Below, piece by piece: positions 16,405 to 64,000 of a DNA stretch of 64,000 nt. The DNA is from Rhina ancylostomus (taxonomy: Eukaryota): contig JARFYF010000094.1 in the NCBI GenBank assembly GCA_030265395.1, positions 19,706,512 through 19,770,511 of the forward strand, given 5' to 3'. Within the stretch, counting starts at the first letter, position 1. Every line of letters starts with the position of its first letter. Below the pieces are notes generated by a model. It was not told the origin of the DNA. It saw only the letters and a list, made by a program, of their open reading frames with translations, and made no database searches. Made by a program: the position numbers and the translations under genes.

Positions 16405-17250
16405 TTGGAAATCTAAAACAAAAGTAGAAAATGCTGGAAATACTCGGCAGGTCAGGCAGCATCTGTGGGAAGAGAAACAAGAGTTAACATTTCAGGTTGG
16501 AGACTCCTCATCAGAACTGAAAAGGAGACAGGAAGCTTGTAAAGCTGCAGGGAGGGAGGAGGAGGGTAAAACGGTGGTGAGCATGATCTGGTCAATGAGT
16601 GAACGGGACCCGTCAGAACAGAGACAAAAGAACGTGAATTCCAGAGCAGGAGGACAGGCCCAGCAGGTCAGGTTGGTCATGTTCTCCACTCCCAGCGAGA
16701 AAAAAAAAGGAGGGAAAAAAAGAAGCGGAAATAAAACAAGCTGAGTTTATATCACAGATGGATGACTGATACAGACCGAGAAATCAAGTTACCTGAAGTT
16801 GTAGAATTCAATACTGAGTCCAGCAGCCTGCAACGTGTCCAGTCAGAAGATGAGGTGCGTTACTCATGCTTGCACCGGACCTCACTGTGACTGTACCGGA
16901 GGCCACGGACTGATAGGTCAGAGTAGGAGTGGAATGAGGAATGAAAGTGTCGGGCAACGGGAAGCTCAGACTGAATGCAGGTATTCTGCGAAGCCCTCAC
17001 CCAGCCTGTGTTTGGTTTCTCCAGTGTAGAGGACACCACATTGTGAACACCGAATGCAGTTCACCAGATTGGAAGAAGTGCAAGTGAATCGCTGTTTCAC
17101 CTGGAAAGATTGTTTGGGCCCCTGAATGGTGGGAAGGGAAGAGGTGAAAGAACAAGCCAGCAGTTGTAAGAGAAAGTGCTATAGGAAGAGGGGTGGTTGG
17201 TGGGAATGGAAGAGTGGTCATGTGGAAGGTGTCGGAATCCCATGGAACAA
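16405..17250 (-). mobile_element. Penelope-like element 3' part: GIY-YIG endonuclease remnant plus pLTR
   Basis: Minus frame FTSSLPTIQGPKQSFQVKQRFTCTSSNLVNCIRCSQCGVLYTGETKHRLGEGFAEYLHSV (about 17147-16970); pLTR at 16405-16520. Confidence 0.9.
16481..16519 (-). ncRNA. Minimal type I hammerhead ribozyme motif in pLTR
   Basis: Minus strand CAGUU-CUGAUGA-GGAGUCUCCAACCU-GAAA-UG-UU-AACUC. Core intact, stem I AGUU/AACU, stem II weak. Confidence 0.55.
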
Positions 17251-17589
17251 GACCATTATTGGAAAGTGACACTATGTGGCAAGCTACAGAGAAAGCCTAG
17301 ACGTGAGAAGGATGCCGGACAGCTGAGCTTGCAGCTGCTGTCTTTGACTGCTTAAGCAAACACTGAGAAAGGCTTGAAAATTTTGAGGAGGCAGCTGCAG
17401 ATAATTGAACACTTTTCCAAGAGCAGTGAACCTGCATCCAGTGTAGGAATGCTTTGAAACAGCTCAGTGCTCACTAAAGGCCTTGATCTCGAGATTCAAT
17501 GCTTGGTGGAGGGGCTGGATTTTGGTGGTTTTGAAGCTGGATTGACTACAAAGTCCTCAATTGCTGATGTTAATCATGTTATGGAAACA

Positions 17590-17795
17590 AGCAAAAGGGT
17601 GGTGGGTATATGCCAAAGGAAGCTGAGGTGGTAGGTACAATTACAATGTTTAATAGATATTTGGACTGGTTCATGGATAGGAAAAGTTTAGAGGGATATG
17701 AGCCAACTGCAGGCAAATAGGATCTCAGGAAGGCACTTTGGTTGGCATGGGGGAGTTGGGTCAAAGGGCCTACTTCTGTACTGTATGATCCTATG
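17590..17795 (+). mobile_element. CR1 3' terminal fragment
   Basis: ggtaggtacaattacaatgtttaatagatatttggac...gttgggtcaaagggcctacttctgtactgtatgatcctat. Confidence 0.8.
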
Positions 17796-17975
17796 GACAA
17801 GGGAGTTGTGAATAGAATGGTCCCCGTGAAATGCTAGATTGGGAGGAGAGGGGCAGATGTGTCTGTTGGCTGAATCTTTTGAAAGCTGGTAGAAATAAAG
17901 AATGATTTGTTGAATGCAGAGGCTGGTGGGAGGGAAGGCGAGGACCAAGGGAACTTTATCCTTCTGTGTTTGAGA
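17796..17975 (-). mobile_element. Penelope-like element RT-to-endonuclease linker fragment
   Basis: ORF 17688-18017 has KDKVPLVLAFPPTSLCIQQIIL...HICPSPPNLAFHGDHSIHNSLVH, compare PLE 'xPLVLTYHP...IFPxPPxxAFRRxxSLRxxLV'. Confidence 0.8.
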
Positions 17976-18090
17976 ATGAGAAGTGTTTAAATTTATCCTT
18001 GTGATGGATTGAAGCATTTGCTGCTGGGGAGGGAATTGGGCGGGGTGGGGAGAAGGTATTATTCAGGTACATGAAGAAATTGAAAGCTGT

Positions 18091-18786: not shown

Positions 18787-19414
18787 GGTATTGGTATTGA
18801 TTTATTATCATCACATGTACTGAGATACAGTGAAAAGCTTTTGTTTTGCGTGCCATCCAGACAGATCATGCCATACATAATTACACTGAGGTAGTAAAAA
18901 GAAATCAAAATGCAGAATACACTGTTACNNNNNNNNNNGTAGACAAATAAAGTGCAAGGGGCCACAACGAGGTAGATTGGAAGATCAAGAGTTCATCCTT
19001 TAGCATATAAGAGGTCCATTCAAGAGTCTGATAACAGCAGGATAGAAGCTGTCCTTGAGCCTGGTGGTATGTGCTCTCATGCTTTTGTATCTTCTGACCA
19101 ACAGGAGAAGGGAGAAGAGAGAATGACTAGGGTGGGTGAGGTCTTGATTATGTTTACTGATTTCCCAGGGTAGCGGGAAGTGTAGACAGAGTTGGTTTGC
19201 TTGATGGACTGGGCTGCATTCATAATTCTCTGCAATTTATTATAGTCCTGGGGAAGAGCAGTTGCCGTACCAAGCTGTGAGACATCTGGATAGGATGCTT
19301 TCTGTGGTGCATCTATAAAAACTGGTAAGAGTCATCAGGAACACACCGAATTTCCTTAGCTTTTGGAGGAAGTAGAGACGTTGGTGTGCTTTTTTGGCTG
19401 TAGCGTCCATGTGG
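18787..19414 (-). mobile_element. Rex1/Babar-type LINE 3' end (second subfamily)
   Basis: ORF 19240-19464: HMDATAKKAHQRLYFLQKLRKFGVFLMTLTSFYRCTTESILSRCLTAWYGNCS; (caatac)n tail. Confidence 0.9.
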
Positions 19415-20438
19415 AAGTCTCTTGGAACTCGCAAGATTGTTAAATGCTGTAAGTGATTTGGCATTTTGAAAGTGCAAATGGAAGTGATTTAGGACAGAGT
19501 TTCTTCCGGGGGAAATCACACAGAGATGTAGGGTTGTAGGGGAAGATAAGTCATGTGCATGCAGAGCAATANNNNNNNNNNNNNNNNNNNNNNNCTATTT
19601 GTGAGAATGACATAGTGCTTGTAGCAGGGTCACATGGGTTGGCAAGTTCAAGGGAGAGACTATGAGAGGGATTAGGGTGCATGTATAATGGAACAGGCAG
19701 GCAGTGATGAACTAGGGATGAAGGCTGAAACTATGGTGATTGTGAATAGAGAGACTGAGGAATGAAAACAATAAAGATATTACAGTAAATTTTTTTGAAT
19801 GGGTGGTAATGTGGAGGTATTGGGGGAAGAGTGTGGAACAAAACAAAATGATCAAAGGAGAAAGAGATAGAGATGTATGGGGCCATCTTAAAGATGTGAT
19901 GTAATGACGAGAGCAACTGAAGAGGTGTGGGGGCAAGTAGTGGAAAGTATAACCCAAATGAAGAGCCTTCAGTTAGGAGGAATGTATCATTATTCCCCAG
20001 CTGATCCTAAACCTCCAGGGTGGCTTTAGAAAACCAGTTCATTACCGTAGAAAGTCTTACTGCAGCAATCTTACAGAACAATCTGTCAGATGGGATTGTA
20101 ACCTTGATTTAAACAGTGTATTTTTGTTTTCAATAGGCCTCGGGGGTGGGGGGGAGGGGGGAGGTTTTCTGTAAATTATAGTCAGAAAGTGGCTGGGTTT
20201 CCTGTTGCCCATGTGGTAGCTTCGAGCCCTTTGGTCAAATGCTAATGAATCCCAGTGGTTAAAATGTCATTTATTCACGTCTGTTCTTAAGTTGAACATT
20301 GTTTAGAGTCAGGTTTTTTAGAGAATTGTTTGTTGTTCCTCAGCATTTCTGACTTTGATAAAACATGCAGATCTCTCATTTTGAAACTTGGTAAGACATC
20401 CATATTAATTTAGGCTGACACCCCAGTATGGTACTAAG

Positions 20439-23376: not shown

Positions 23377-24053
23377 GACACAAGAAACCTGCAGATGCTG
23401 GAAATCTGGAACAAGAACAGAAAATGTTACTTGCACTCAGCAGGTTCAACAATGGTGGGGGAGAAACAGAGTTGGAAAGGTGAGAAAGCAAGAGTATTTT
23501 AAGTTGTAAAGAGGGGGTGGGGTGGTGAAGACCACAGAGGGAATGTCTATGATAGGGTGCAGATCAAAGATATTATGCAACTAGGAAACAGAATGGAACG
23601 GAAAAGTACATCATATCTGTGGAGATAAAGAAAAGAGGGTAATTACCTGAAACTGTTAATTTCAAACTTAGGTCCCGTGGGCTGCAAGGTACCCAGACGG
23701 GAAGCTCATGGTGTCCTTGCACACTGAATAGAGATGTTGAGCAAAGTGGTCTCTCCATCTGTATCATTTTCTCCAAAGTGCAAGTTACCATATTGTGAGC
23801 ATTAACTTTGAAATCTTACAATGGAGGAAGTGCAAGTAAATTGCTGCTTCATTTGGAAGGACTTTTTGCCAAGGCATAGAAGGTTACTGACCAAGTGGTG
23901 GTAAATGGGATCAGTGCAGATGGGTAATTTATGGTCAGTGTTAGACATGGTGGGTCAAAGGGTCTGTTTCTGTGCTGCATGACTTGATGGATATATGACA
24001 ATTTGGATCCATGGCTAGTGGGAAGGGAAGAGGTAAAAGGTTAGGTATTGCAC
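23377..24053 (-). mobile_element. Degraded Penelope-like element 3' part
   Basis: pLTR end gacacaagaaacctgcagatgctggaaatc; ggaggaagtgcaagtaaattgctgcttcatttggaagg and gtgggaagggaagaggtaaaagg align to the GIY-YIG region at 17070-17150. Confidence 0.8.
23868..23995 (+). mobile_element. CR1 3' UTR nested in Penelope GIY-YIG region
   Basis: ggtaaatgggatcagtgcagatggg...gacatggtgggtcaaagggtctgtttctgtgctgcatgac. Confidence 0.75.
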
Positions 24054-27021: not shown

Positions 27022-27362
27022 CGTCACTTTGATACTACTGTTCCATTCTAATTACATTTCAGCAAATCCCATCCATTGGTGGAATCATTCTCTTCCATTG
27101 TAGTGTACATTTATAAGGCACTGAACTGTCTTATACTGACATTCCTGACCGTTTTTCTGTCTCATTGTGTGAGATTACAAAAAACACTTTATGTGGCTTT
27201 AAATTCACAAAACTCATCTCTGGTAGAACATCTACTGATGATCCTTGGTGTGTGTCCTCTGTGCTGAAATGTTAGCCACTCACATAAAGTGACAGAATCA
27301 CAATGAAGTGGAACACAGGCAGAATAGCAATTTGAAAGAAGTCAGGCAGGTTTCCAAAAAGA

Positions 27363-27605
27363 GACACAAGAGACCAGAAGTGGTGGAATCTGGAGCAACA
27401 AAGAATCTGCTGGAGGAACTCAATGGGTCGAGCAGCATTTGTGGGAGGAAAGAAATTGTCAACATTTCCAGTTTAAACCTTGCATCAGAACATAGAACAT
27501 AGAACAGTACAGTACAGAACAGGACTGAGTTTACTATTTCTTTCCTCCCACAGAGTCTGCTCCACCCACCAAGTTCCTCCAGCAGATTCTTTTTTGCTTT
27601 AGGTT
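27363..27605. repeat. Palindromic Penelope-pLTR-derived element
   Basis: Inverted arms aagaatctgctggaggaact / agttcctccagcagattctt and tgtgggaggaaagaaat / atttctttcctcccaca. Confidence 0.85.
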
Positions 27606-27959
27606 TCCAAAAAGAATCCATGAGATACATGTTTGGACACTCTCCTCAGACTGTACACCCAGTGTCCATATTGGGTGTGCACCTGGCACAACTCATTAAT
27701 GTGTAGCACCTCACAACACGCTAACAAGTCTGAAATATGGTAATGCTTATTAGTGATTCCTTGAGTGTAATGCAATACTCTAATAATTATATGCATATTC
27801 ATCTTGAAGTTATAATGTACAGACATAGGCAACTGTTAAAACTGCAGCTCCAACCTGTATTTTCCATCCTGGCTCCTCCTCTGTCCTCATATTTGACATA
27901 TTCCTAAATTCAGTTTAGAATATATGGTCACCTAATGTGAGGATGTGGTGGTTGGATGC

Positions 27960-38639: not shown

Positions 38640-39075
38640 AGACACAAGAAATTCTGCAGATGCTGGAATGTGGAGCAATGCACAAAAAGTGCTGAAGGAA
38701 CCCATCAGGTCAGGCAGCATCCATGGAGGGAAATAAACAGTCCATGTTTTGGGCCAAGACCCTTCATCAGGACTGGAAAGGAAGAGGGCGGAAGCCAGAA
38801 TAAGAAGATGGGGGGAGAGGGAGGAATACATGCAGGCAGNNNGGTAGTGGGTGGGGGAGGGGGAGAAGATGTAATCAGCTGAGAGGTGATAGGTTGAAGA
38901 GGCTGAGGGTTGAAGAAGAAGGAATCCAGTAGGAGAGGGCAGTGGACCATGGAATAAAGGATGAGGGAGGAGAGGAGATGGGCAGGTCATCAAGGCAGGA
39001 GAAGGGATATATGGAATAAGGGAAGACAAAGGAGTGATGAGGGAAAGAAAAATAAGGAGTGGGGTTACTGGAAGT
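38640..39075 (-). mobile_element. Penelope-like element 3' UTR plus pLTR (young subfamily)
   Basis: gacacaagaaattctgcagatgctggaat...gggaaataaacagtccatgttttgggccaagacccttcatcaggactggaaaggaagaggg, a purine-rich UTR, ending ggggttactggaag. Confidence 0.85.
38738..38775 (-). ncRNA. Hammerhead ribozyme motif, predicted inactive
   Basis: CAGUC-CUGAUGA-AGGGUCUUGGCCC-AAAA-CA-UG-GACUG. Perfect 5-bp stem I and good stem II, but G12 is A and position 17 is G. Confidence 0.6.
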
Positions 39076-41337
39076 ATTATGTGTATGTTAACCCCATTTT
39101 GACATCCCAATCTGGTGTTGTCCAGCCTTTTATTTAAGCAAGTAGTCTAATACATTATCAAATGTGCTTGGTAATTGCTTCCTTTAAATGAAAGAATAAA
39201 TCCCTATTCATACACTGAACCATATGTTCAAAATCTTTCCTTCTCGTGTGAACACACCTGAAGTCCTAGAGGAACTTTCATGTTTGTCATGCTTTGCCTC
39301 AATGAACCAGAACTCCAGATATAGGTTTGTCACCTGGTTCAGAGCATGCTTGGTTTCATGATCATTGAGGTCTTCACAGTGAAGCCAAGGTTTACAAATT
39401 TGAGTTCCTGGTTATTTTACAAACTTGCTGCCAAGCATCTGTTTATTGAAATGACAGTTCAACAAATTAGATTTGGAAATAAGTCAATGTGGTCCTATCC
39501 TACGCGACAAAATACAATAATTACCCTAAATTTGGACAATACATTTGTGGATTGTTCCAAGTGTTGCTTCATGTATTGACCACACATTGTTTTGCAAGAA
39601 TGGACCAGAAAAATTTGCAACATTAGTCCATAGTTTTCTGGAAAATTTTGGTATTACGCCATCCTAAGAACAAAGGAGTGCATGTTTTACAAGAATATTT
39701 GCATGTAACTAAATTACTTTGGTTTTATCTCAGTATATTGCTAACAAATTAATGCCAGTGGGGTTCTTTGCAAGTTTCAGAATTTGATGCCATTGTCAAG
39801 CTTAGCATGGAAAACAGAGTAACTAAATCAGATTGAGGAAACTCCAGCCAATTATTGTAGCTACCTAACATTTCTTGCTTTCTTTAAGAGATAGTTTCTC
39901 ACCAATTGGAAGTAAAGTGACTAAACTTGGAGAAAATACAATGAATCACAGCAACAAAAATCTTAATAAAGCTCTCAATAAAATACTTTTAACATTTTCA
40001 TATCTTTAAAGTTCAGGAGGTTTCCATGAATCTGTATTAGTTCCATTTTAGCGGAGCTGGAGGACTGCATGAGTATAGTAAGCAGAATTATGGGCTGCCA
40101 CTCAGCAGGAAGGGAATTGAACATAATGATAATTACATATTATGTGAAATGAGGTTTCTCTTTGGCTCTTGTGTAGGGTTTAGGTTAAGATGGTGAAGTA
40201 ATGAAATCAGCACAGCTAAGTTATGGTTTTTAAAGGTACGCATTCCAAAACTGAAAGGGCACCAGAAGGGTGACAAGCTCTTCCAGCTCATCTGAAATAT
40301 TAACGTGAGATCTAAGTGCCAAATTTGGGTGAACTGCTTGCCTTTGTCTTCCCATGTAATTAGTGTACATACATTATGTCATGTCTTGGATTTGTTTATT
40401 GGGAAGGGCAATCACTCACTTTGGTTTAAAATGCAATGTGCATGTCACTCTTGAAGAAAGCTTCCACTTCTTTACAAGAAGATAGCAATTACAAAAGATA
40501 GCAATTTGTGACAACTCCACTGATTAAACACTAATGTTGACAGGCACATAACATTCTCAGAGAACTCAAACCTATAGTATTCACATGAAAGATGCTAATA
40601 AGGTACTCTTGAAGAGTTCTTAAATTTCATCATTGTAGTGCCATGACAGCTTAACAGCTGATAAAAGAAAATTAAATTTAATGTCTGGGCCAGGGTCAAA
40701 TAATAATTTTGAATCTGTTAATCTTTGTTGAAAGGCAATATTTTCCATTACATAGATTCTGAACTAATGGCAATAACCACACCCGTCCGGGGGTTTTAAA
40801 GCCCCCATAGGTGGGAATACCAATCCTGCCAGATACTGGAATTTTATTAAAGGTTAAATTCCTTAATGCTTGTTAGCAAGACAGGAGGAAAAGGATAGGG
40901 GTATTTACAATATTGTTTGCTATTATTTTATTGAACTATTTTTATTATTAGTTTCAACAATGTTAGATCTCCATATGAAAAGCTTAGTTTTCCTTTGTCC
41001 AAGGCCCTTCCTTCCCACCTCTCCCACCAATGACAGCAGGAACAAGCAAGAGAGATCTGATGGACACTTCTTAGAAAACAGAGGTCTTTCTCCATCCTTC
41101 CCCACATCCCTGCCACCAACCATTACACGGACTATCCCTTCATTCCTAGTGACTTCATTTGGACTGCAAATGTGAAAATGAGTACAACTTTCAGCCAATA
41201 CTCTAGCACTTGGATAATGCCAGAGATCAGAGACAATATACCATTAAAAACTCCCAGGTTTAACCTAGTGGAAGTCAGGATAGTTTGCTGTTTATCACCT
41301 CACCTGTGATAACAAGCTTAACTTCCAAATTGGATGT

Positions 41338-41745
41338 AAGAACAGAAAATGATGGAAACACTAATAGTTCAGACAGCAAGTGTGGAAAGAGAAACAGAGC
41401 TAATNNNNNNNNNNNNNNNNNNNNNNNNNNNNNNNNNNNNNNNNNNNNNNNNNNNNNNNNNNNNNNNNNNNNNNNNNNNNNNNNNNNNNNNNNNNNNNNN
41501 NNNNCTAATGTTTCAGGTTAAAGACTCTTTCTCAGAACTGGCGAAAAGACGAAACAATTTGGTTTAATTTTAAGTTGCTGAGAAGGTTGGGGAGGGATGG
41601 ATAAGGACAAAGGGAAGATCTCATTTCTAATGAGGAGTCTTCAACCTGAAATGTTAAAACAATTTTTCTTTCCACTGACGCTACCTGATTTACTGAGCAT
41701 TTCCAGTATTTTCTGTCTTTATTTCATACTTCCCAACATTTGCAG
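41338..41745. repeat. Inverted pair of Penelope pLTRs (older subfamily)
   Basis: acagaaaatgatggaaacact...atgtttcaggttaaagactc vs gagtcttcaacctgaaatg...agcatttccagtattttctgt; internal N gap. Confidence 0.75.
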
Positions 41746-42039
41746 AAAATTGGTTTTAATTTACTTCAAATTGGATGTACTGATACAGAAGTGAAAGCTC
41801 ACTTTCAAACTTCTGCAATAAAGGGCATCAATGTACATATGTCAAAGGAAACTTTTCATGTCAATTTAGAGCTTAATGCTTAATTTTCAAGTTGTTGCAT
41901 TATTTATGTCACAATGACCCATGACAGGTTTTAGAGAAAATGGGAAATTCCAAGGTCAGCTCTTTTGTACCATTGAGCATCAAAATGGGAGATAATTTTC
42001 TGATATAGGCTGTCAGAATACAAATCAAAAAGTGGGAAT

Positions 42040-47374: not shown

Positions 47375-47845
47375 TGTGTTAAGCCATGGTTAGATCTCTC
47401 CTGGAGGAATGTGCACATAATGCACAAAGAATATAGAGATGTTAGAAAAATTCAAGCTTATGAGGGGATTTGAAAGAGTATAGAGAAGATGTTTCTAATT
47501 CAGGAGGAGACTGACACTCTTCCTCCTGAATTAGAAATATCTTCACTATATCCAGAGAGATCTTCCTCCGATGCCCTCTAAGCCTCTTGCTATATGAAGG
47601 TGAAAGTGTCACAAATAAACTCAATAGCTTCTTTTCACAGAAGGTGGTTACAATGTGGAACCTACAATAATATGGATTGATTAAGGTGAGTTTCATAAAT
47701 GCATTTAAAGAAAAGCTAGATAAAAACAAACAAAAAATGGGAATAGAAGAGTTTTCTGATAGCTTAAATGAAATAGCTTTGGAGCAGGCTTGTATGCAGC
47801 ATAAACAGGAATATATACCAGTTGTATCTGCACTGCAAAATCTTT
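47375..47845 (+). mobile_element. Old CR1 3' fragment containing a fold-back hairpin
   Basis: FKLMRGFERV, cttcttttcacagaaggtggttacaatgtggaac, gcatttaaagaaaagctagataaa. Confidence 0.75.
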
Positions 47846-52875: not shown

Positions 52876-53580
52876 GTACGCTTGAGCTCTGCCCTGCCGA
52901 GACCGCACTGGGTTTGTCAGATCCACCCTGGACATAGTAGGATGGGGCTCCTGCTTCTCCCTGCTGCCTACTACCCCTGTGCCCCATGTGGTTCATTCTC
53001 GCCTTGCTTTCCCTTCTCTGCATATTCATGCTTCCACCCAATGTGCTGGCTCGACAACCTGCCCCTCTTTCACATTCTGTGGACCACTTCCATCACCCTG
53101 TTCTCCATGCTTCATTCTGAGGTCCATCACTTGTATATTCCTGCATTGGCTGCCCCTTTGCTCTGTCCATCCCTGCTCTGGGTTCACCCGACGTGTTCTG
53201 CTGGGCTGTCACCCTTTCACATCTGCTTGAGCTCCACCCTCCCATCCATTTAACATAAAAATGAAGCCCATATATGGTTTTGCACCTGAAACTGACACAA
53301 ATTGAGTAGCATGTGCAAAAAAGATTAACACTGGTGAGGTAAAGCTGGGGAATGGAGGAATGGAGAAATCCATCTGGGGAATGGCAAGGGAGGAAGAGAG
53401 TGAATGGGAGAAGAGTGAGCTGAGTTGTGGATCCATATGAAGATAAATGTAAAAAGACACCTTGGAGGCAACCATTCACATTGCACTGAACCTGGCCAAG
53501 CTATGTGGATGGGGTTCACTTCTGCCTCTGCTCATTTTCTGCTGAAGTAGGGAGCAGGGTCATGGAGCAGGCATTAAGCA

Positions 53581-53799
53581 TTCCGCAGATGCTGGAATCT
53601 GGAGCAATACACAAAAAGTGCTNNNNNNNNNNNNNNNNNNNNNNNNNNNNNNNNNNNNNNNNNNNNNNNNNNNNNNNNNNNNNNNNNNNNNNNNNNNNNN
53701 NNNNNNNNNNNNNNNNNNNNNNCAAAAAGTGCTGGAGGAACTCAGCAGGTCAGGCAGCATCCATGGAGGGAAATAAACAGTCGACGTTTCGGGCCAAGA
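53581..53799 (-). mobile_element. Young Penelope pLTR, truncated inside the ribozyme motif
   Basis: gctggaggaactcagcaggtcaggcagcatccatggagggaaataaacagtcgacgtttcgggccaaga; minus strand keeps GCCC-GAAA-CG-UC-GACUG but lacks CUGAUGA. Confidence 0.85.
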
Positions 53800-55469
53800 G
53801 CATGTGATTAATTTACTCAAGAAGACTAGGCCACAGAATTTTACTGTGTTGTGAGAGTATAATAGACCCTGGTTTCAGAATCAATGCCTGTTTTCTGGGG
53901 CTGCTTAATTTAAACCCTTGATGCACCTTTCATGTGGAACTTGCAAGTAGTGAGCATTTACTGGAAGGATTCAAGCACAGGAGACCACCGACTGAAATCC
54001 ATCCTTTCTCAAAGACTTGATCAGCACTTGGGAATCATGTACAAAGCAAGCCACATTAACAATGAACAGGTTGGAAAAAAGTCACTTCAGGGTCATTAAT
54101 GAAGGGTGTATGTACATTTATGTGAGCAACTGTGAAATGCATTAATGACTTGTGCTAACAGCTTAGTGTTCGAGCTCAAAAGACCTTAAAATAACCTCAA
54201 TGGCTGCAAGAGTGTGGATATAATCTGAGCAATTCATAAAAATTCATTGCTTTGTAGGGAACAGTGGATAAACATGATGTTAGATTTCATTTCAGGACGC
54301 AATGTTATTTGTTCTGCAAGGGGCATAAAGATCAAACTTCTGCCTGCATTGCAATGAATGCAAGATACTAAATGGAATAAGGAAACATCTGCAAGAAATC
54401 TAATGACTAGATATGGTCAGAAAGTTTATTACCTACGTGGGGGAAGCGGTGTCATGGAGTATAAACAGCACCAGGGGACTTGTTATACCACTGATCAAAG
54501 CTGTGTGAAATTTTATGGTTATGTGGTCACTGTACATAAATTTGTCCAGTAATTTGCTTGCATAACAGTCAAGGAAATGGCCATTTTCTGAGGTGATTTA
54601 CTCCCCTCTAGAATTCATCTGTATTTTGTTGTGACTCACCCTGAAATATCTCACCCAAAGGCCTGGCATGGAAACAATGAACTGAGCAGCTTCTATCTGC
54701 ACTGTGAATCGATGTGATTCTATGCGGAAACATCCTTCAATGTTTTTCCATCAGCTATACTCCTGTGCAATCTGCTCCTCTCAACGTCATATATAAAAAA
54801 TGAAACACTTCTTTCTTGACTCTCATGGGAAATATACAGAGCTCTGTACAAATGAACCTGAAAATGTTAATAGTGATTCTAGTCTCATTATAGAGTCATT
54901 TGTGCAATTGTTAAGAGAGCTGAATGGTCTCAGGCATTGGGCTCAAATGCTGTTAATCCTCACCATTGCTTGTGGTTAGTGGACTCTGGACCTTCTGAGT
55001 GTGAGTGTGAGTTTAAATTCTACTTCTCCATTAACGTTTGATGTTTGTTTTGGATTATGTGGGTGTTAAGACCAATGATCATATCAGTCATGATCTAATT
55101 GCATGGTGGAGAATAAACAAGGGGCAGTATGGTCTACTTAGCTCCTATCTCTTGTGTTCTCAGTGGGTCGGCTACCTGTCTCTACCTGGTGTTCTCGCTG
55201 CCCTCCCAGTTTATCACCCTTCCACCCATCTATATGGATATACTGCTTTCAAATTTTGGTGAGGCCATAGTGTCACTGCGTTTCCTCTGATGGCTAAATA
55301 GGCCAAAACTGGGCAGCCAGTGTTTACCGTCCAGCTGAAGGTGTCATTGGTTACTGTTGTAGGGGGTCCTATATTTCCATGACTTGACAGCACAGGCATT
55401 TGCCGTGGAGCTACTGAAATCATTGTTCTTCATGGTGGCATTTCCCTAATAATAGCCAACGTCATCATT

Positions 55470-56470: not shown

Positions 56471-56999
56471 ACCATGAGTGAGGAGTTCTGAAAAACTTAC
56501 TTCACATTTCACGGCATTACAACAGGAGACTCTTCTGTTTCATGTTGCCTTGGGTCAAATTGAAACACCTACCCTCTCTTCCTCTGTGGATCAAACTCAG
56601 TTCATAACAAACCTAGATATTTATGAATGATAAGCTTAATTAAGAAAGGACATTTAAAATGAATATTGTTGCTTTCTGGTAGGAAGTAGTTTATGTTTGC
56701 ATCTTATTGCAGGCAAACTGTAGCATTTATCTTCAGGTTGCCTCCTTCTTTCTACTGAGAGACAATATGCCATGGGATCTGAAATAAATACAGCCATTGC
56801 AGTACCTTGCTAATCTAGGGGTTGACAGACTTAACAAGTACTCGATTTTCAATTATGACTTTAAGTGAAATTTAAGTGTCGGGAGCTGTCAGCTCTCAGC
56901 CATGCTGACCATAGCATCTTAGACTTGTGCATGTGTAGACAAATGCAGAGGTTCCAGACAAGTTGGAGGTCAGACGCCAGTACCTCCTGATCAAAAGGG

Positions 57000-57232
57000 A
57001 AGGAGAGAAAGATGGAAATTCTCAGCAGGCTTGGAAACATCTGAAGGAGGAACAGAGTGAATGACACTGGGTGATGATCTTAATGAGTTTTCACTATAAA
57101 TATTCTGATGAAAGATCATCAGTCTGAAATGTCATCTCTGTTTCTCTGTCTATATTGCATCATGACCTGCTGAGTGTTTCCAATATTTTTTGACCTTATG
57201 TTGGATTTCTAGCATCCGCAGCATAATGCTTT
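57000..57232. repeat. Old palindromic pLTR-derived element
   Basis: ggaaattctcagcagg / cctgctgagtgtttcc arms; gatgatct / agatcatc near centre; plus-strand CTGATGA at 57105-57111 and GAAA at 57126-57129. Confidence 0.7.
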
Positions 57233-57239
57233 TGTGATC

Positions 57240-57830
57240 AATAGGCAGAATTGCACTGACTGATAGCTGCTGGTTCCACAGGGAGCTGTTGGCTATCAGC
57301 CATGTTGGTCGCAGCATGTCTCAGACTTCTGTGTGGCCAAATACAGAAGCTCAAGATGAGCTAGAGGTCAGGTGGCAAGCTCATCTGAATGAAGTCGCTA
57401 ATTGTNNNNNNNNNNNNNNNNNNNNNNNNNNNNNNNNNNNNNNNNNNNNNNNNNNNNNNNNNNNNNNNNNNNNNNNNNNNNNNNNNNNNNNNNNNNNNNN
57501 NNNACTCAGCAGGTCAGGCAGCATCTGTGGAAGGAGAAACAGTAAATGTTTTGGGTCTGGGACTCTTCATCAGAACCAGTTCTGATAAAGCTTCTGGACC
57601 CAAAGCCATACTGTTTCTCTTTCCACAGACACTGCCAGACCTGCTGAGTGTTTCCAGCATCTTCTGATTGTGTTTCAGCTTCAAAGGCTGCTAGGGCTTC
57701 ATGGTCAGAGCCTCAGGCTATGATTCCTAAGACTTCATCTTTCTGACCATCTCAGGCGTGGAGAGTTAGTTCTTCTGGCCTTCTGCATCTTATGAATGAC
57801 ACCGCAGACAGGCACCGTGGGCTGCCCAAC
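57240..57830 (+). pseudogene. Possible second HARBI1-like Harbinger transposase remnant
   Basis: IAAGS/GAVGY/HV (about 57263-57306; compare IAGFPxVxGAIDxxHV) and RLLGLHGQSLRL*FLR (about 57685-57732; compare WLLGDKGYPLxxWLMTPLR). Confidence 0.4.
57504..57678. repeat. Palindromic pLTR-derived element
   Basis: actcagcaggtcaggcagcatctgtggaaggagaaacagta ... tactgtttctctttccacagacactgccagacctgctgagt; centre tcatcagaaccagttctgataa. Confidence 0.85.
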
Positions 57831-59929: not shown

Positions 59930-60448
59930 GGTTGGAATTGGAATTGGCTTATTATTTTCACTTGTACCAAGGTACAGTGAAGTACTTGTCTTGCATACCA
60001 TTCATACAGATCAATTCATTACACTGTGCATTGAGGTAGTGCATTGAGTAATCAAAGGGACTTTTATTATGCTGGCTGCTTTACTGAGGCAGCGAGAAGT
60101 ATAGACAGAGTCCATGGAGGGGAGTCTGGTTTCTGTGATGCGCTGGGATGTGTCCACAACTCTCTGCAGTTTCTTGTGGTCACGGGCAGAGCAGTTGCCA
60201 AACCAAGCCGTGATGCATCCAGATAGGATGCTTCTTATGGTGCATTGATAAAAGTTGGTGAGTGTCAAGGGGCACATGCCAAATTCCTTTAGCCTCCTGC
60301 AGAAGTAGAGGCACTGGTGAGCTTTTTTGGCCATGGCGTCTACGTGCTTGGACCAGAACAGGCTATTGGTGATGTTCACTCCTAAGAACTTTGAAGTTCT
60401 CAACCCTCTCAACCTCAGCACCGTTGATGTAGACAGGTGTATGTGCAG
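59930..60448 (-). mobile_element. Rex1/Babar-type LINE 3' end with internal deletion
   Basis: ORF 60011-60499 KFLGVNITNSLFWSKHVDAMAKKAHQCLYFCRRLKEFGMCPLTLTNFYQCTIRSILSGCITAWFGNCSARDHKKLQRVV; lacks the segment seen at about 24500-24755. Confidence 0.92.
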
Positions 60449-61896
60449 TTTCTGTATAACTTGAAGATGATGCTGTTCCCCTGCAGTTTCTACACGCATC
60501 CTTCGAGATATAAGAGGTTTGCTGCAGCACTCTTGACAATTGGATGAGTTTTGTCAAGCTCTGATATGATGTATAGGTTGCAGCTGAATGATCCCTTCGT
60601 GTTTATTTTCTGTAGGGGGTTGATACAATTGAATGGCTTGTTTGACCACTTCAGGAAGTAATTTAAAATCAACCATGTTGATGTGGGACTATAGGACTTG
60701 CATAAGTACTTGAAGGGAAAAAATTGCAGGGCTTGGAAAAGAGCCAGGAAATTGCATTAACTGGATTGGTCTCCTTGTACTGTTACAGCTCTATGATTCT
60801 ATAATTATATACAATGAGTCTAAATCAGACAAGGGTGCCATTCTTATAGCACCGTGAAGCTCACTAGCCACCTTTGGGTACTCAAAAGCATATAGGAAGA
60901 TGCCGAAAGTCAGCGGCTGCTGTCATGATTTCCTCTTTCTTCCACAGTTTTGCAGCCTCGTCCAGTGCAATGTTCATAAATGAGTGAATTGACAAGAACT
61001 GATATTTATGAACAATGTTCTCTGTGGAAAAAAAACCTGAAGTCGTTATGCTTTTTTGCATGAGGTGAAAGCAAGTTTTTGATGGTGCATTAATCCATAA
61101 TTACTGCTTATTGACTTCTCTGCCTCTAAAGAACTCATTTACATTTTAACATTTCAGCTAATTATTTAAAAATTCTGTACATTTTGACATAACAAATTGT
61201 TTTCATTTTATTTTATAAGTAGTTTGATATTTCAAGTTCTTTTTCCATATCATAATATGTACGGTCTATTTCATTTGTGCACTTGGAATGTTTAGAATGC
61301 TTGTTTAGAACTTCCTGCTTGCTGTTTGTAATAATTTTTGTTTGATTAGCTGCACAACCAGCTTGATAATATCACTGTTGCCAAATGGCAGAGATTCCTT
61401 AAATAGCACCTATGCCCAATGTTAAGTAAAGTTGGGAAAGGTAACATCTGTGCCATCGAGATCTTTGCTGGAAGTTTTCATCAAGGTCAGTACCGACTGC
61501 AGGATCAGGGTCCAAGAGATGTTCGGAAGGTCTTTAGTTTCAGTTATTTTCTTTACTGTTTTAGTTAAGTCACCACAAGACAAATGTGACCTTGGTGTTG
61601 CTGGACTTCAGAATGGAAATTGAGCAGGGACTCTCACTAATGATTGCTAATCATAAGCTCTTCCTGGAACATGCACGTGCTTGGATATTAGATAATGCAT
61701 AGCTGGGATGAATCAAGGTGCCTCCCTGCCCAAGGTTACACATGAAACATGTCACTTGAGAATAGGAAACAGAAAGGTTCTGGCACTTGGAAATCTGCAT
61801 TCAAGACAATGCAACAGCAACAGGAGATAATAAGAGAAGGGGAATGAAAATGTTGGCCAAAATAACTTCTAAATTACACTTTGGGGTCCATTTTGC

Positions 61897-62095: not shown

Positions 62096-62728
62096 CAATT
62101 CCAATTTTCCTGTTTATTGTGCATCATTAAAAGTGTATTCAGATGTAAATAAATGAATTAATAAATGGCACTGCATCAGTGAACAGTTGTTGATGAAGAT
62201 CTTTGATGAATGTTAAAATTTCATACTTGATTTTTTTTCTAGTTGAAAATACAGAGATTTTTGAAATGATAAAATATAGCATCAAAGGATAGCCATTCAT
62301 GTTTTAAATATTTAGTTATATATTCCTAAAACTGCCAAAAGTCATAAGGATACAATAATAGATGCATTTATTCTGCATCTTCATTGAGGAACTGTGCTTC
62401 AAGGCTGACTGGATGAGAGACATGGTTGCAACCCCCAGAGACGTCCTCAGAGCATGGTCTCATTTGGTGAGCATACCTTATGCTTCAAATGTGTACTAAC
62501 ACCAAGCCACTAAAGGCAGTAAAAAAAACCCCACAAGTTTAATTAAAAATTGTTTGATAATCTGTTCCTGAGCAGGTAAGCTACAGAATGCTGCAAAAAT
62601 TCAGGCCTCAGGTAACAGATTTAATTGGCGCTAACCATGCTTTTGGGAGACTGACAATGTCAGTAATTTTAATTATCTTTCTTTTTAAAACAAATTCAAC
62701 CTGGGGACACAGATGGTTCAAGAATTCA

Positions 62729-62959
62729 GACAGACACACAAGAAATTCTGCAGATGTTGGAATCTGGAGCAATACACAAATAAAAAGTGTTGGAGGAACT
62801 CAGCAGGTCAGGTAGTATCTATGGAGGGAAATAAACAGTCGATGTTTCAGGCCGAGATCCTTCATCAGGACTCTCAGCCCGAAACATCGACTGTTTATGC
62901 CCCTCCATAGATGCTGCCTGACCTGCTGAGTTCCTCCAGCACTGTTTTTTGTGTATTGC
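62729..62959. mobile_element. Young palindromic pLTR-derived element with 11-bp TSD
   Basis: About 90-bp inverted arms (62767-62857 / 62872-62961) around a 14-nt spacer; direct repeat tcaagaattca at 62718-62728 and 62960-62970. Confidence 0.92.
62836..62872 (-). ncRNA. Minimal type I hammerhead ribozyme motif
   Basis: Minus strand AGUC-CUGAUGA-AGGAUCUCGGCCU-GAAA-CA-UC-GACUG. Stem I AGUC/GACU, stem II AGG/CCU, cleavage triplet AUC. Confidence 0.65.
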
Positions 62960-64000
62960 TCAAGAATTCAAAACATTGCCCTTCACCCTTTGACAACAAG
63001 TTCTGATCTTAACTAATGGAATGGGGATCATCCTTGTTCAGGAACTCGGAGATATTTTGGATCAAATACAGATCTGATGGGTGCTCTTTCCAGCACTGAT
63101 AGGCTATTTACCTATAGTGGAGAGAAACTGGTACTCATTTGCTTTGGTCGGTAGTACTGCTATGCATTTCCCTGCATTTTGTTCTGGAATGTTCCAAGTA
63201 TTAGCTTTGCTTTGTGATTGCTTGCCAAAATTAATCAGCAATTGATTGCCTTTTGGAAGTCATGCTTTTAAATTATTGCTATTAAGTACAGTATTTAACC
63301 AACAACTATCAGAATATAACCAGCAAAATGTAGCCTGTTCCGATAATAGTTGGTACAATTGGCTGTCAGATCTATCCTCTGGAATGGCATACACAGTTGA
63401 AATTTGAGTCCTGTGTCTTCAGCCAACAATAAAATGAGGCCAATTTCTTCCCAAACCTGTGTCATTACAGCAGAATAGCAAGCTCCCGGTCACTGGAAAG
63501 CTTACTAAAACAAATAATGTAAATACCATCTCTGAGAATTTTATCATTTTCTGAGATGATTTCTGGTTGCTTGCAACTAGCAACCAGAAGTGGTTGCATT
63601 TATTCCACTACTAATCGGTGACTTTTCTTTGGGAAGAATTCAGAACGAGGTGATGTGTCTCATGTAACCAGTAAGACTCTTTTGAACTCCTGTTCCCCTT
63701 TTGTGGGCCCTAATTAGTAGTCACAAGTGGTATAGTTGCAAACACTGTTTTCAGTTCCATAAGTGCATTGTGACTTTTCCACGGAAGGATGAAGGTACAG
63801 TGGATGGAAGTGGTGCATGGTCAGTGACAGAAAATGCAGCTTTTGCCAAAAAAGTAGCAAAAGGGAGGAGTGCTGCAACTGACTTTAAAAACGATTGTCA
63901 TTATTTCCTTTGCACAGTACTAGGATTTTAAGTGCAAAAATTACAGGAGAAATGGATTATTCCAATGCTGTAAAATTTACTTGGGCTTTGTGTTTCCTTT

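Follow-up and report, generated by a model that had tools for sequence, protein, structure and literature searches.

Within the 64,000-nucleotide stretch of DNA analysed here (the window), a 231-bp fold-back at 62729-62959, which we refer to as A, is very probably a single, now inert insertion of an EN+ Penelope-like element (PLE). It appears to have been truncated to the terminal repeat (pLTR), is probably of Neptune type, and consists of pLTR copies joined head-to-head at integration. This layout is the already published architecture of PLE insertions, with nothing architecturally new, and our results support the view that A is a recurrent product of PLE integration.

The two inverted arms of A match in 80 of 89 columns, a divergence of about 10%, and both strands fold far better as RNA than shuffled sequence (z = -18 for the minus strand and -22 for the plus strand; 0/200 shuffles as stable), with a longest perfect duplex of 22 bp. 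The fold-back described in an earlier note on this DNA is therefore real. That note gave it as 231 bp made only of two arms of about 90 bp; the length is correct, and the arms are unequal. The long arm, a sense pLTR of 144 nt on the minus strand (62729-62872), has the first base of hammerhead helix I as its 5' end and is 86% identical over 137 columns to another copy of the same subfamily, D, with homology ending 4 nt upstream of CUGAUGA. It alone carries the 40-nt pLTR 3' tail (62729-62768, minus strand), which is also carried by copies D, B and K, adjoins the left duplication and ends with a short AGAC/AC stutter relative to D. The short arm (62872-62959, plus strand) is an inverted, 5'-truncated pLTR of 88 nt, which stops at position 104 of the 144-nt long arm and has no tail. 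It begins in loop II and, as had been reported, has lost CUGAUGA at the junction. The arms meet head-to-head in a near-perfect hairpin that is visible both in the sequence and in the folds, GAGA-TCCT-(TCATC)-AGGA-C-TCTC (62854-62875, plus strand), with a 4-bp stem, a 5-nt loop and one bulge; T62872 is common to both arms. Because one substitution and a T tract longer by 3-4 nt are shared by the two arms and absent from D and E, both arms come from one source. At the eight arm mismatches a G-U pair is kept in 3/8 on each strand and none is compensated. This equal retention of G-U pairs on both strands, together with the lack of compensation, gives no sign of selection on the hairpin.

An exact duplication, TCAAGAATTCA, flanks the element at 62718-62728 and 62960-62970, encloses the 231 bp and has no further occurrence on either strand of the window. 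Exact repeats of at least 11 nt were found in 3/2761 random pairs of equally spaced boxes, and in 1/400 in a second test, which places the perfect 11-bp target-site duplication claimed earlier beyond chance. The right copy matches the element's own continuation at 8/11 nt, and because its first two nucleotides equal that continuation exactly, the right boundary of A is ambiguous by about 2 nt. We also considered an old pLTR as the insertion target and set this aside: the reconstructed empty site gave no pLTR match at the insertion point (best E 0.11, elsewhere).

A is one of several such structures. A profile of the other copies gave 21 matches in the window, 20 of them at E<0.001, at 13 loci, five of which are fold-backs: A, B (27.4 kb; 27348-27615), C (57.5 kb; 57504-57690), J (57.0 kb; 56988-57245; old and weak) and L (41.3 kb; 41324-41779). 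Fold-back B has a tail on one arm, a duplication of 13-15 bp (15 exact, 0/400) and its own junction. L likewise combines a tail on one arm with a 13-15-bp duplication (13 exact, 0/400); its spacer derives from the element's upstream region, and an assembly gap lies inside it. The 11-nt duplication of J has one mismatch and is marginal (20/400). In C, helix I is where both arms begin, and the junction (57563-57592) is a near-perfect palindrome, one mismatch from a spacer-free hairpin; the left end is lost in an N gap and the duplication is unreadable. Tails of 40, 29, 36 and 46 nt sit on one arm only in A, B, J and L, respectively. The junction of A was found in none of the other four fold-backs in these 64 kb, all of which belong to other subfamilies, and no two of the five share a junction; neither of the two copies of A's own subfamily, D and E, is a fold-back. 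This recurrence favours formation of the fold-back at integration, which is the second of two alternatives that the earlier note had left side by side: five fold-backs with five different junctions, and a tail of 29-46 nt on one side in the four readable ones, are what a recurrent product of PLE integration looks like. Possible duplications were also noted at D and H; being weak (exact in 41/400 and 13/400), they were set aside. Of the 13 N gaps in the window, four lie within PLE copies or border on them; in copy E (53576-53802, minus strand) a 100-N gap splits the copy, and the gap ends overlap. A pLTR repeat of this kind is typical of shark and ray genomes.

The family is tied to PLE reading frames by copy F (16416-18062, minus strand), in which a pLTR with hammerhead (16416-16520) accompanies a GIY-YIG domain (about 16792-17217) and a linker remnant (17703-18005). 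The pLTR of F, 71% identical to A over 105 columns, follows a broken PLE reading frame at a distance of about 270 nt. Copy F as a whole is a broken PLE 3' end (linker, GIY-YIG, 3' region and pLTR) interrupted by other inserts; its hammerhead has an intact core and a 4-bp helix I, but reads AUGU. For a 70-residue piece of the F frame we found 765 protein relatives at E<=0.001, with tblastn also used. Of ten relatives that we scanned, nine matched RVT_1 and/or GIY-YIG at E<=0.01, in most cases with scores slightly below the curated cut-offs, and the long relatives carry these domains. Pfam gave no direct match on the window's own F fragment, and no RT-core match was found in the window. Copy K (23378-24052, minus strand) is a tail-bearing pLTR at a second PLE 3' end, more decayed than that of F, with a GIY-YIG remnant (23766-23870) weaker than that of F. 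The link from pLTR to endonuclease thus holds for the family, F and K being downstream of GIY-YIG remnants, and not for the A copy itself. The upstream region of D, a copy of the same subfamily as A, does not align to that of F (score 29 against a shuffle mean of 32). This speaks against a tight link and does not support the idea that D reaches the reading-frame end shared with F. A CX2-5CxxC linker is present in the close relatives P0001, P0002 and P0004; the window's remnant is interrupted and its linker is not readable. Such a linker is described as marking both Neptune and Nematis (PMC8557442); on the strength of the linker in relatives, a Neptune assignment of the A family is likely. Together, the family link, the five fold-backs with five junctions, the one-sided tails and the match to the published layout support the PLE origin proposed for A.

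No host gene was identified among 228 stop-free frames of at least 62 aa in the window (91 + 137 of 233; the other five were scanned separately), a scan that short exons would escape. Pfam matches to ALKBH8_N at 19243-19488 and 60011-60553, both on the minus strand, are presumably the C-terminal part of LINE reading frames. GC skew is persistently positive across the window (1-64000), with a cumulative value of 2.7, and 0.07 outside PLE copies; this mild excess of G over C hints at, in that it is compatible with, plus-strand transcription, antisense to the ribozyme. An unrelated 30-bp inverted repeat, 93% complementary with a 12-nt spacer, lies at 47479-47550.

The minus strand of A holds a decayed minimal type I hammerhead (62837-62872), which reads AGUC-CUGAUGA-13 nt-GAAA-CA-UC-GACU from 62872 to 62837. 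Helix I pairs 62872-62869 with 62840-62837, CUGAUGA occupies 62868-62862 and GAAA 62848-62845, and the nominal cut falls between 62841 and 62840. The conserved core (CUGANGA, GAAA, NUH) and helix I are therefore present, in keeping with part of the earlier description of a complete core with stems I and II; the motif is not complete, since it has ACAU for ACGU and its helix II is damaged. Positions 15.1-16.1 read ACAU in both arms, not the self-complementary ACGU, and the palindrome of a dimeric helix III is absent. Of the other arms, only copy E (53724-53802) keeps ACGU and with it the palindrome; almost all the rest have ACAU or AUGU, as CpG decay would leave them. Helix II of A, read in the register of the family, consists of G-U, G-C, A-C and U-G, forms with a probability of <=0.025 in the isolated motif and lacks the G10.1-C11.1 pair. 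An alternative helix II of 3 bp has a probability of ~0.2 when the motif is folded by itself; this drops to 0.013 within the long arm and to 0.0000 within the fold-back. Forcing the hammerhead fold in A costs about 42 kcal/mol, and the pairing probability of helices I and II within the fold-back is 0.0000. Computationally, this agrees with the suggestion that the hairpin would sequester its own ribozyme, a point that is moot because the A copy probably cannot cleave. On the strength of these models, the hammerhead of A is probably an inherited passenger that does not cleave and has lost its competence as a dimer.

Across the family, the fit to a minimal hammerhead gives weak support: 77.5% of cells are paired over 10 related arms, a value that 18/500 shuffles reach and slid controls do not (<=51%). 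Rfam gave no match at the gathering score in the 64-kb window. At E<=10, nine matches fell in 62600-63100, all to generic hairpin or short weak models, all below the gathering score and none to a hammerhead; those to miRNA models scored far below the gathering scores (40 versus 100). Minimal PLE hammerheads are defined in PMC4209133, which describes opposite-strand pairs 100-700 bp apart, no cleavage as monomers and low cleavage as dimers. Like these, A is type I with a 4-bp helix I and no real helix III, and its family has the extra nucleotide after position 9. A differs in that it is without the 15.2-16.2 palindrome, has G-U in place of G10.1-C11.1, and has an A-C mismatch two pairs on.

The published accounts of PLE insertions resemble A closely. 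In PMC8557442, the 5' end of the insertion is an inverted and 5'-truncated copy, and one end bears a tail of 30-40 bp. PMC3846280 describes inverted pLTRs, duplications of 8-10 bp, a tail on one pLTR and mostly head-to-head junctions with palindromes, which were read as self-priming; PLE inverted repeats also appear in PMC2377424 and PMC8969392. The origin of these repeats and of the one-sided tails is stated as unresolved in PMC8557442 and PMC11167929. The closest likeness is to the EN+ PLEs Neptune and Poseidon (PMC8557442; PMC3846280, e.g. Pen2a_Av; PMC2377424), which share with A the inverted 5'-truncated pLTR in head-to-head arrangement, the one-end tail of 30-40 nt, a short duplication (8-10 bp published, 11 in A), a junction palindrome, a hammerhead in the pLTR and GIY-YIG upstream of related pLTRs. 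Unlike them, A has no reading frame between its repeats and consists of terminal repeats only. Solo pLTRs are noted in PMC3846280, where the passages concerned do not spell out a solo fold-back flanked by a duplication. Animal non-LTR retrozymes (PMC7229834; bioRxiv 2026.07.22.740005) are also non-coding and pLTR-related, with a type I hammerhead and a duplication of >4 bp. As described there, however, their tandem units follow one another head-to-tail, each with its own hammerhead, and give circular RNA, whereas A is head-to-head with one damaged hammerhead. Membership of A among retrozymes was ruled out by the absent tandem repeats and the single ribozyme core. The 5' inversions of L1 are like A in their inverted 5' part, in microhomology at the junction and target overhang, and in a single duplication around the whole, and differ in that the arms of L1 copy adjacent stretches of RNA while those of A copy the same stretch.

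We propose that A was formed in one integration event. A GIY-YIG endonuclease would have made two nicks 11 nt apart, the first of which would have primed reverse transcription at the tail (left end), with cDNA synthesis extending over 144 nt as far as the 5' edge of helix I. There, the short palindrome that the hammerhead contains (CCT-TCATC-AGG) would have served to join a second pLTR copy head-to-head in inverted orientation; the simplest route is that the cDNA end snapped back and primed itself. The inverted arm would have been attached at the second nick through microhomology of at least 2 nt, and filling of the gaps would have produced the 11-bp duplication, after which the arms would have decayed independently to stand ~10% apart. 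The snap-back stem of A is weak, at -2 to -3 kcal/mol as DNA, and its fourth pair rests on a substitution private to A; both points count against snap-back at A.

A variant of this explanation, which is not exclusive of the main claim and predicts the same junction, has two primings: a separate cDNA would be primed on pLTR RNA at either nick, starting at the tail in one case and 40 nt inside in the other, and the cDNA ends would anneal at the palindrome. We regard it as possible, if tentative. Two primings of this kind resemble L1 twin priming. For a purified PLE protein, PMC11167929 describes cleavage and extension of both strands, a predicted dimer, two internal start sites that bound the tail, and no requirement for ribozyme cleavage in vitro; all but the last of these features speak for two primings. 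So does the duplication of A, which matches the RNA at the short-arm end at 8/11 (p 0.002 in register, 0.018 with 3 nt of slack). However, no such match was seen in B, J or L (p 0.19, 0.76 and 0.64; combined 0.57), and A carries non-CpG G-to-A changes on one arm only (see below), which also argues against two primings. A general rule that duplications resemble the element's tail boundary was rejected, the match being significant in A alone of the four fold-backs (combined p 0.57 without A).

The further alternatives depart from our main reading. The first of the two alternatives in the earlier note, a non-autonomous ribozyme hairpin family akin to retrozymes, would have A transcribed and then reinserted as one unit by PLE proteins. 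A clean duplication around the whole unit and the states shared by both arms fit this, as do reports that pLTRs alone suffice for trans mobilisation in a rotifer (PMC3846280) and that non-autonomous PLE derivatives exist (PMC8557442; bioRxiv 2026.07.22.740005). We nevertheless consider it improbable: the junction has no second copy among the other fold-backs, tandem repeats are lacking, the ribozyme is decayed, D and E lack a fold-back, a 150-kcal/mol hairpin would be a poor template, and the one-sided tail is described as a signature of ordinary integration (PMC8557442). Amplification of A as one unit is thus unsupported, in what is a weak test over 64 kb only. Two scans of a prokaryotic genome collection gave no copies outside the window, which is what animal DNA would lead one to expect. 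It is very unlikely that the arms came together through two separate pLTR insertions or a rearrangement at a later time, with the 11-mers matching by chance helped by decayed element sequence. PLEs do tend to insert beside existing copies (PMC6765202), and the right 11-mer plus nine further bases resemble the element's continuation, with a gapped score reached by 0.02% of 15000 random 20-mers. Yet the right 11-mer is identical to the left flank but departs from the element at 3/11, the junction of A has no internal duplication, the reconstructed empty site shows no pLTR match at the insertion point, and B and L repeat the pattern. Least probable of all is a hairpin or ribozyme retained by the host, whether as a source of small RNA, an ADAR substrate or a conditional ribozyme. 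Its appeal lies in the very stable hairpin on either strand, with its long perfect duplex, and in the small RNAs that PLE copies yield in rotifer and fly (PMC3846280); it is opposed by the lack of compensatory changes or strand preference between the arms, by the low Rfam miRNA scores and by the absence of a host gene among the frames scanned.

Two small-sample leads bear on how fold-backs such as A arise. Among 11 arms with a recognisable core, seven (A, B, both C arms, H, J and the long arm of L) lose homology <=6 nt upstream of CUGAUGA, three (D, F and the short arm of L) run on into a pyrimidine tract that ends with CAG, and one (I) is ambiguous. The breaks in A, C and L are fixed by the switch to the other arm, those in H and J rest on divergent references, and the centre of fold-back B holds what we take to be a LINE-like tail. 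The pyrimidine tract and CAG stand immediately before helix I in three untruncated copies (38776-38790, 16521-16535 and 41541-41555). By its letters, the helix I site resembles both a splice acceptor and an initiator, for which the consensus is YYANWYY. In fly Penelope, an intron ends at helix I (PMC4209133). The short arm of A and the 5'-truncated copy E start at the same alignment column. Finding this junction in further copies, the check suggested in the earlier note, would therefore not be decisive for an element that spreads as one piece: breaks concentrate here, and the site brings its own palindrome.

The second lead is a one-sided substitution pattern. The long arm of A has five non-CpG G-to-A changes (62858, 62816, 62813, 62790 and 62757; C-to-T on the plus strand) and no other non-CpG substitution. 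G-to-A accounts for 5/5 changes there versus 0/9 in the short arm, D and E (Fisher p 0.0005, post hoc), a count that leaves out CpG-site, shared and junction columns and for which the nine were read by eye. The GC context of the five changes is modest (p 0.017), and an AID-like purine-C context was not significant (p 0.11).

Both leads could be accommodated in one proposal, which we put forward as a speculation with low confidence. Solo fold-backs would be a standard output of PLE reverse transcription, with internal initiation in the 5' pLTR, run-off at an RNA end where helix I begins (a CAG site like a splice acceptor, or like a YYANWYY initiator) and snap-back of the cDNA on the hammerhead palindrome; the displaced first-strand cDNA would be deaminated by a host cytidine deaminase. 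A deaminase acting on first-strand cDNA while it is displaced in second-strand synthesis would explain five G-to-A changes in the long arm versus zero in the short arm. Our literature search, which took in few subscription papers and no supplements, where helix I clustering may already be described, returned no paper with twin priming in PLEs, or their editing by deaminases, as its main subject.

A itself is one decayed copy of a described structure and is useful mainly for annotation, since stubs of this sort may be taken in error for hairpin elements or miRNA precursors. If the clustering at helix I and the one-arm G-to-A pattern hold genome-wide, snap-back and twin priming would become distinguishable from sequence alone. 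If the proposal is true, the thousands of such stubs expected in this genome would record how the second strand is made when PLEs integrate and how deaminases act in defence against them.
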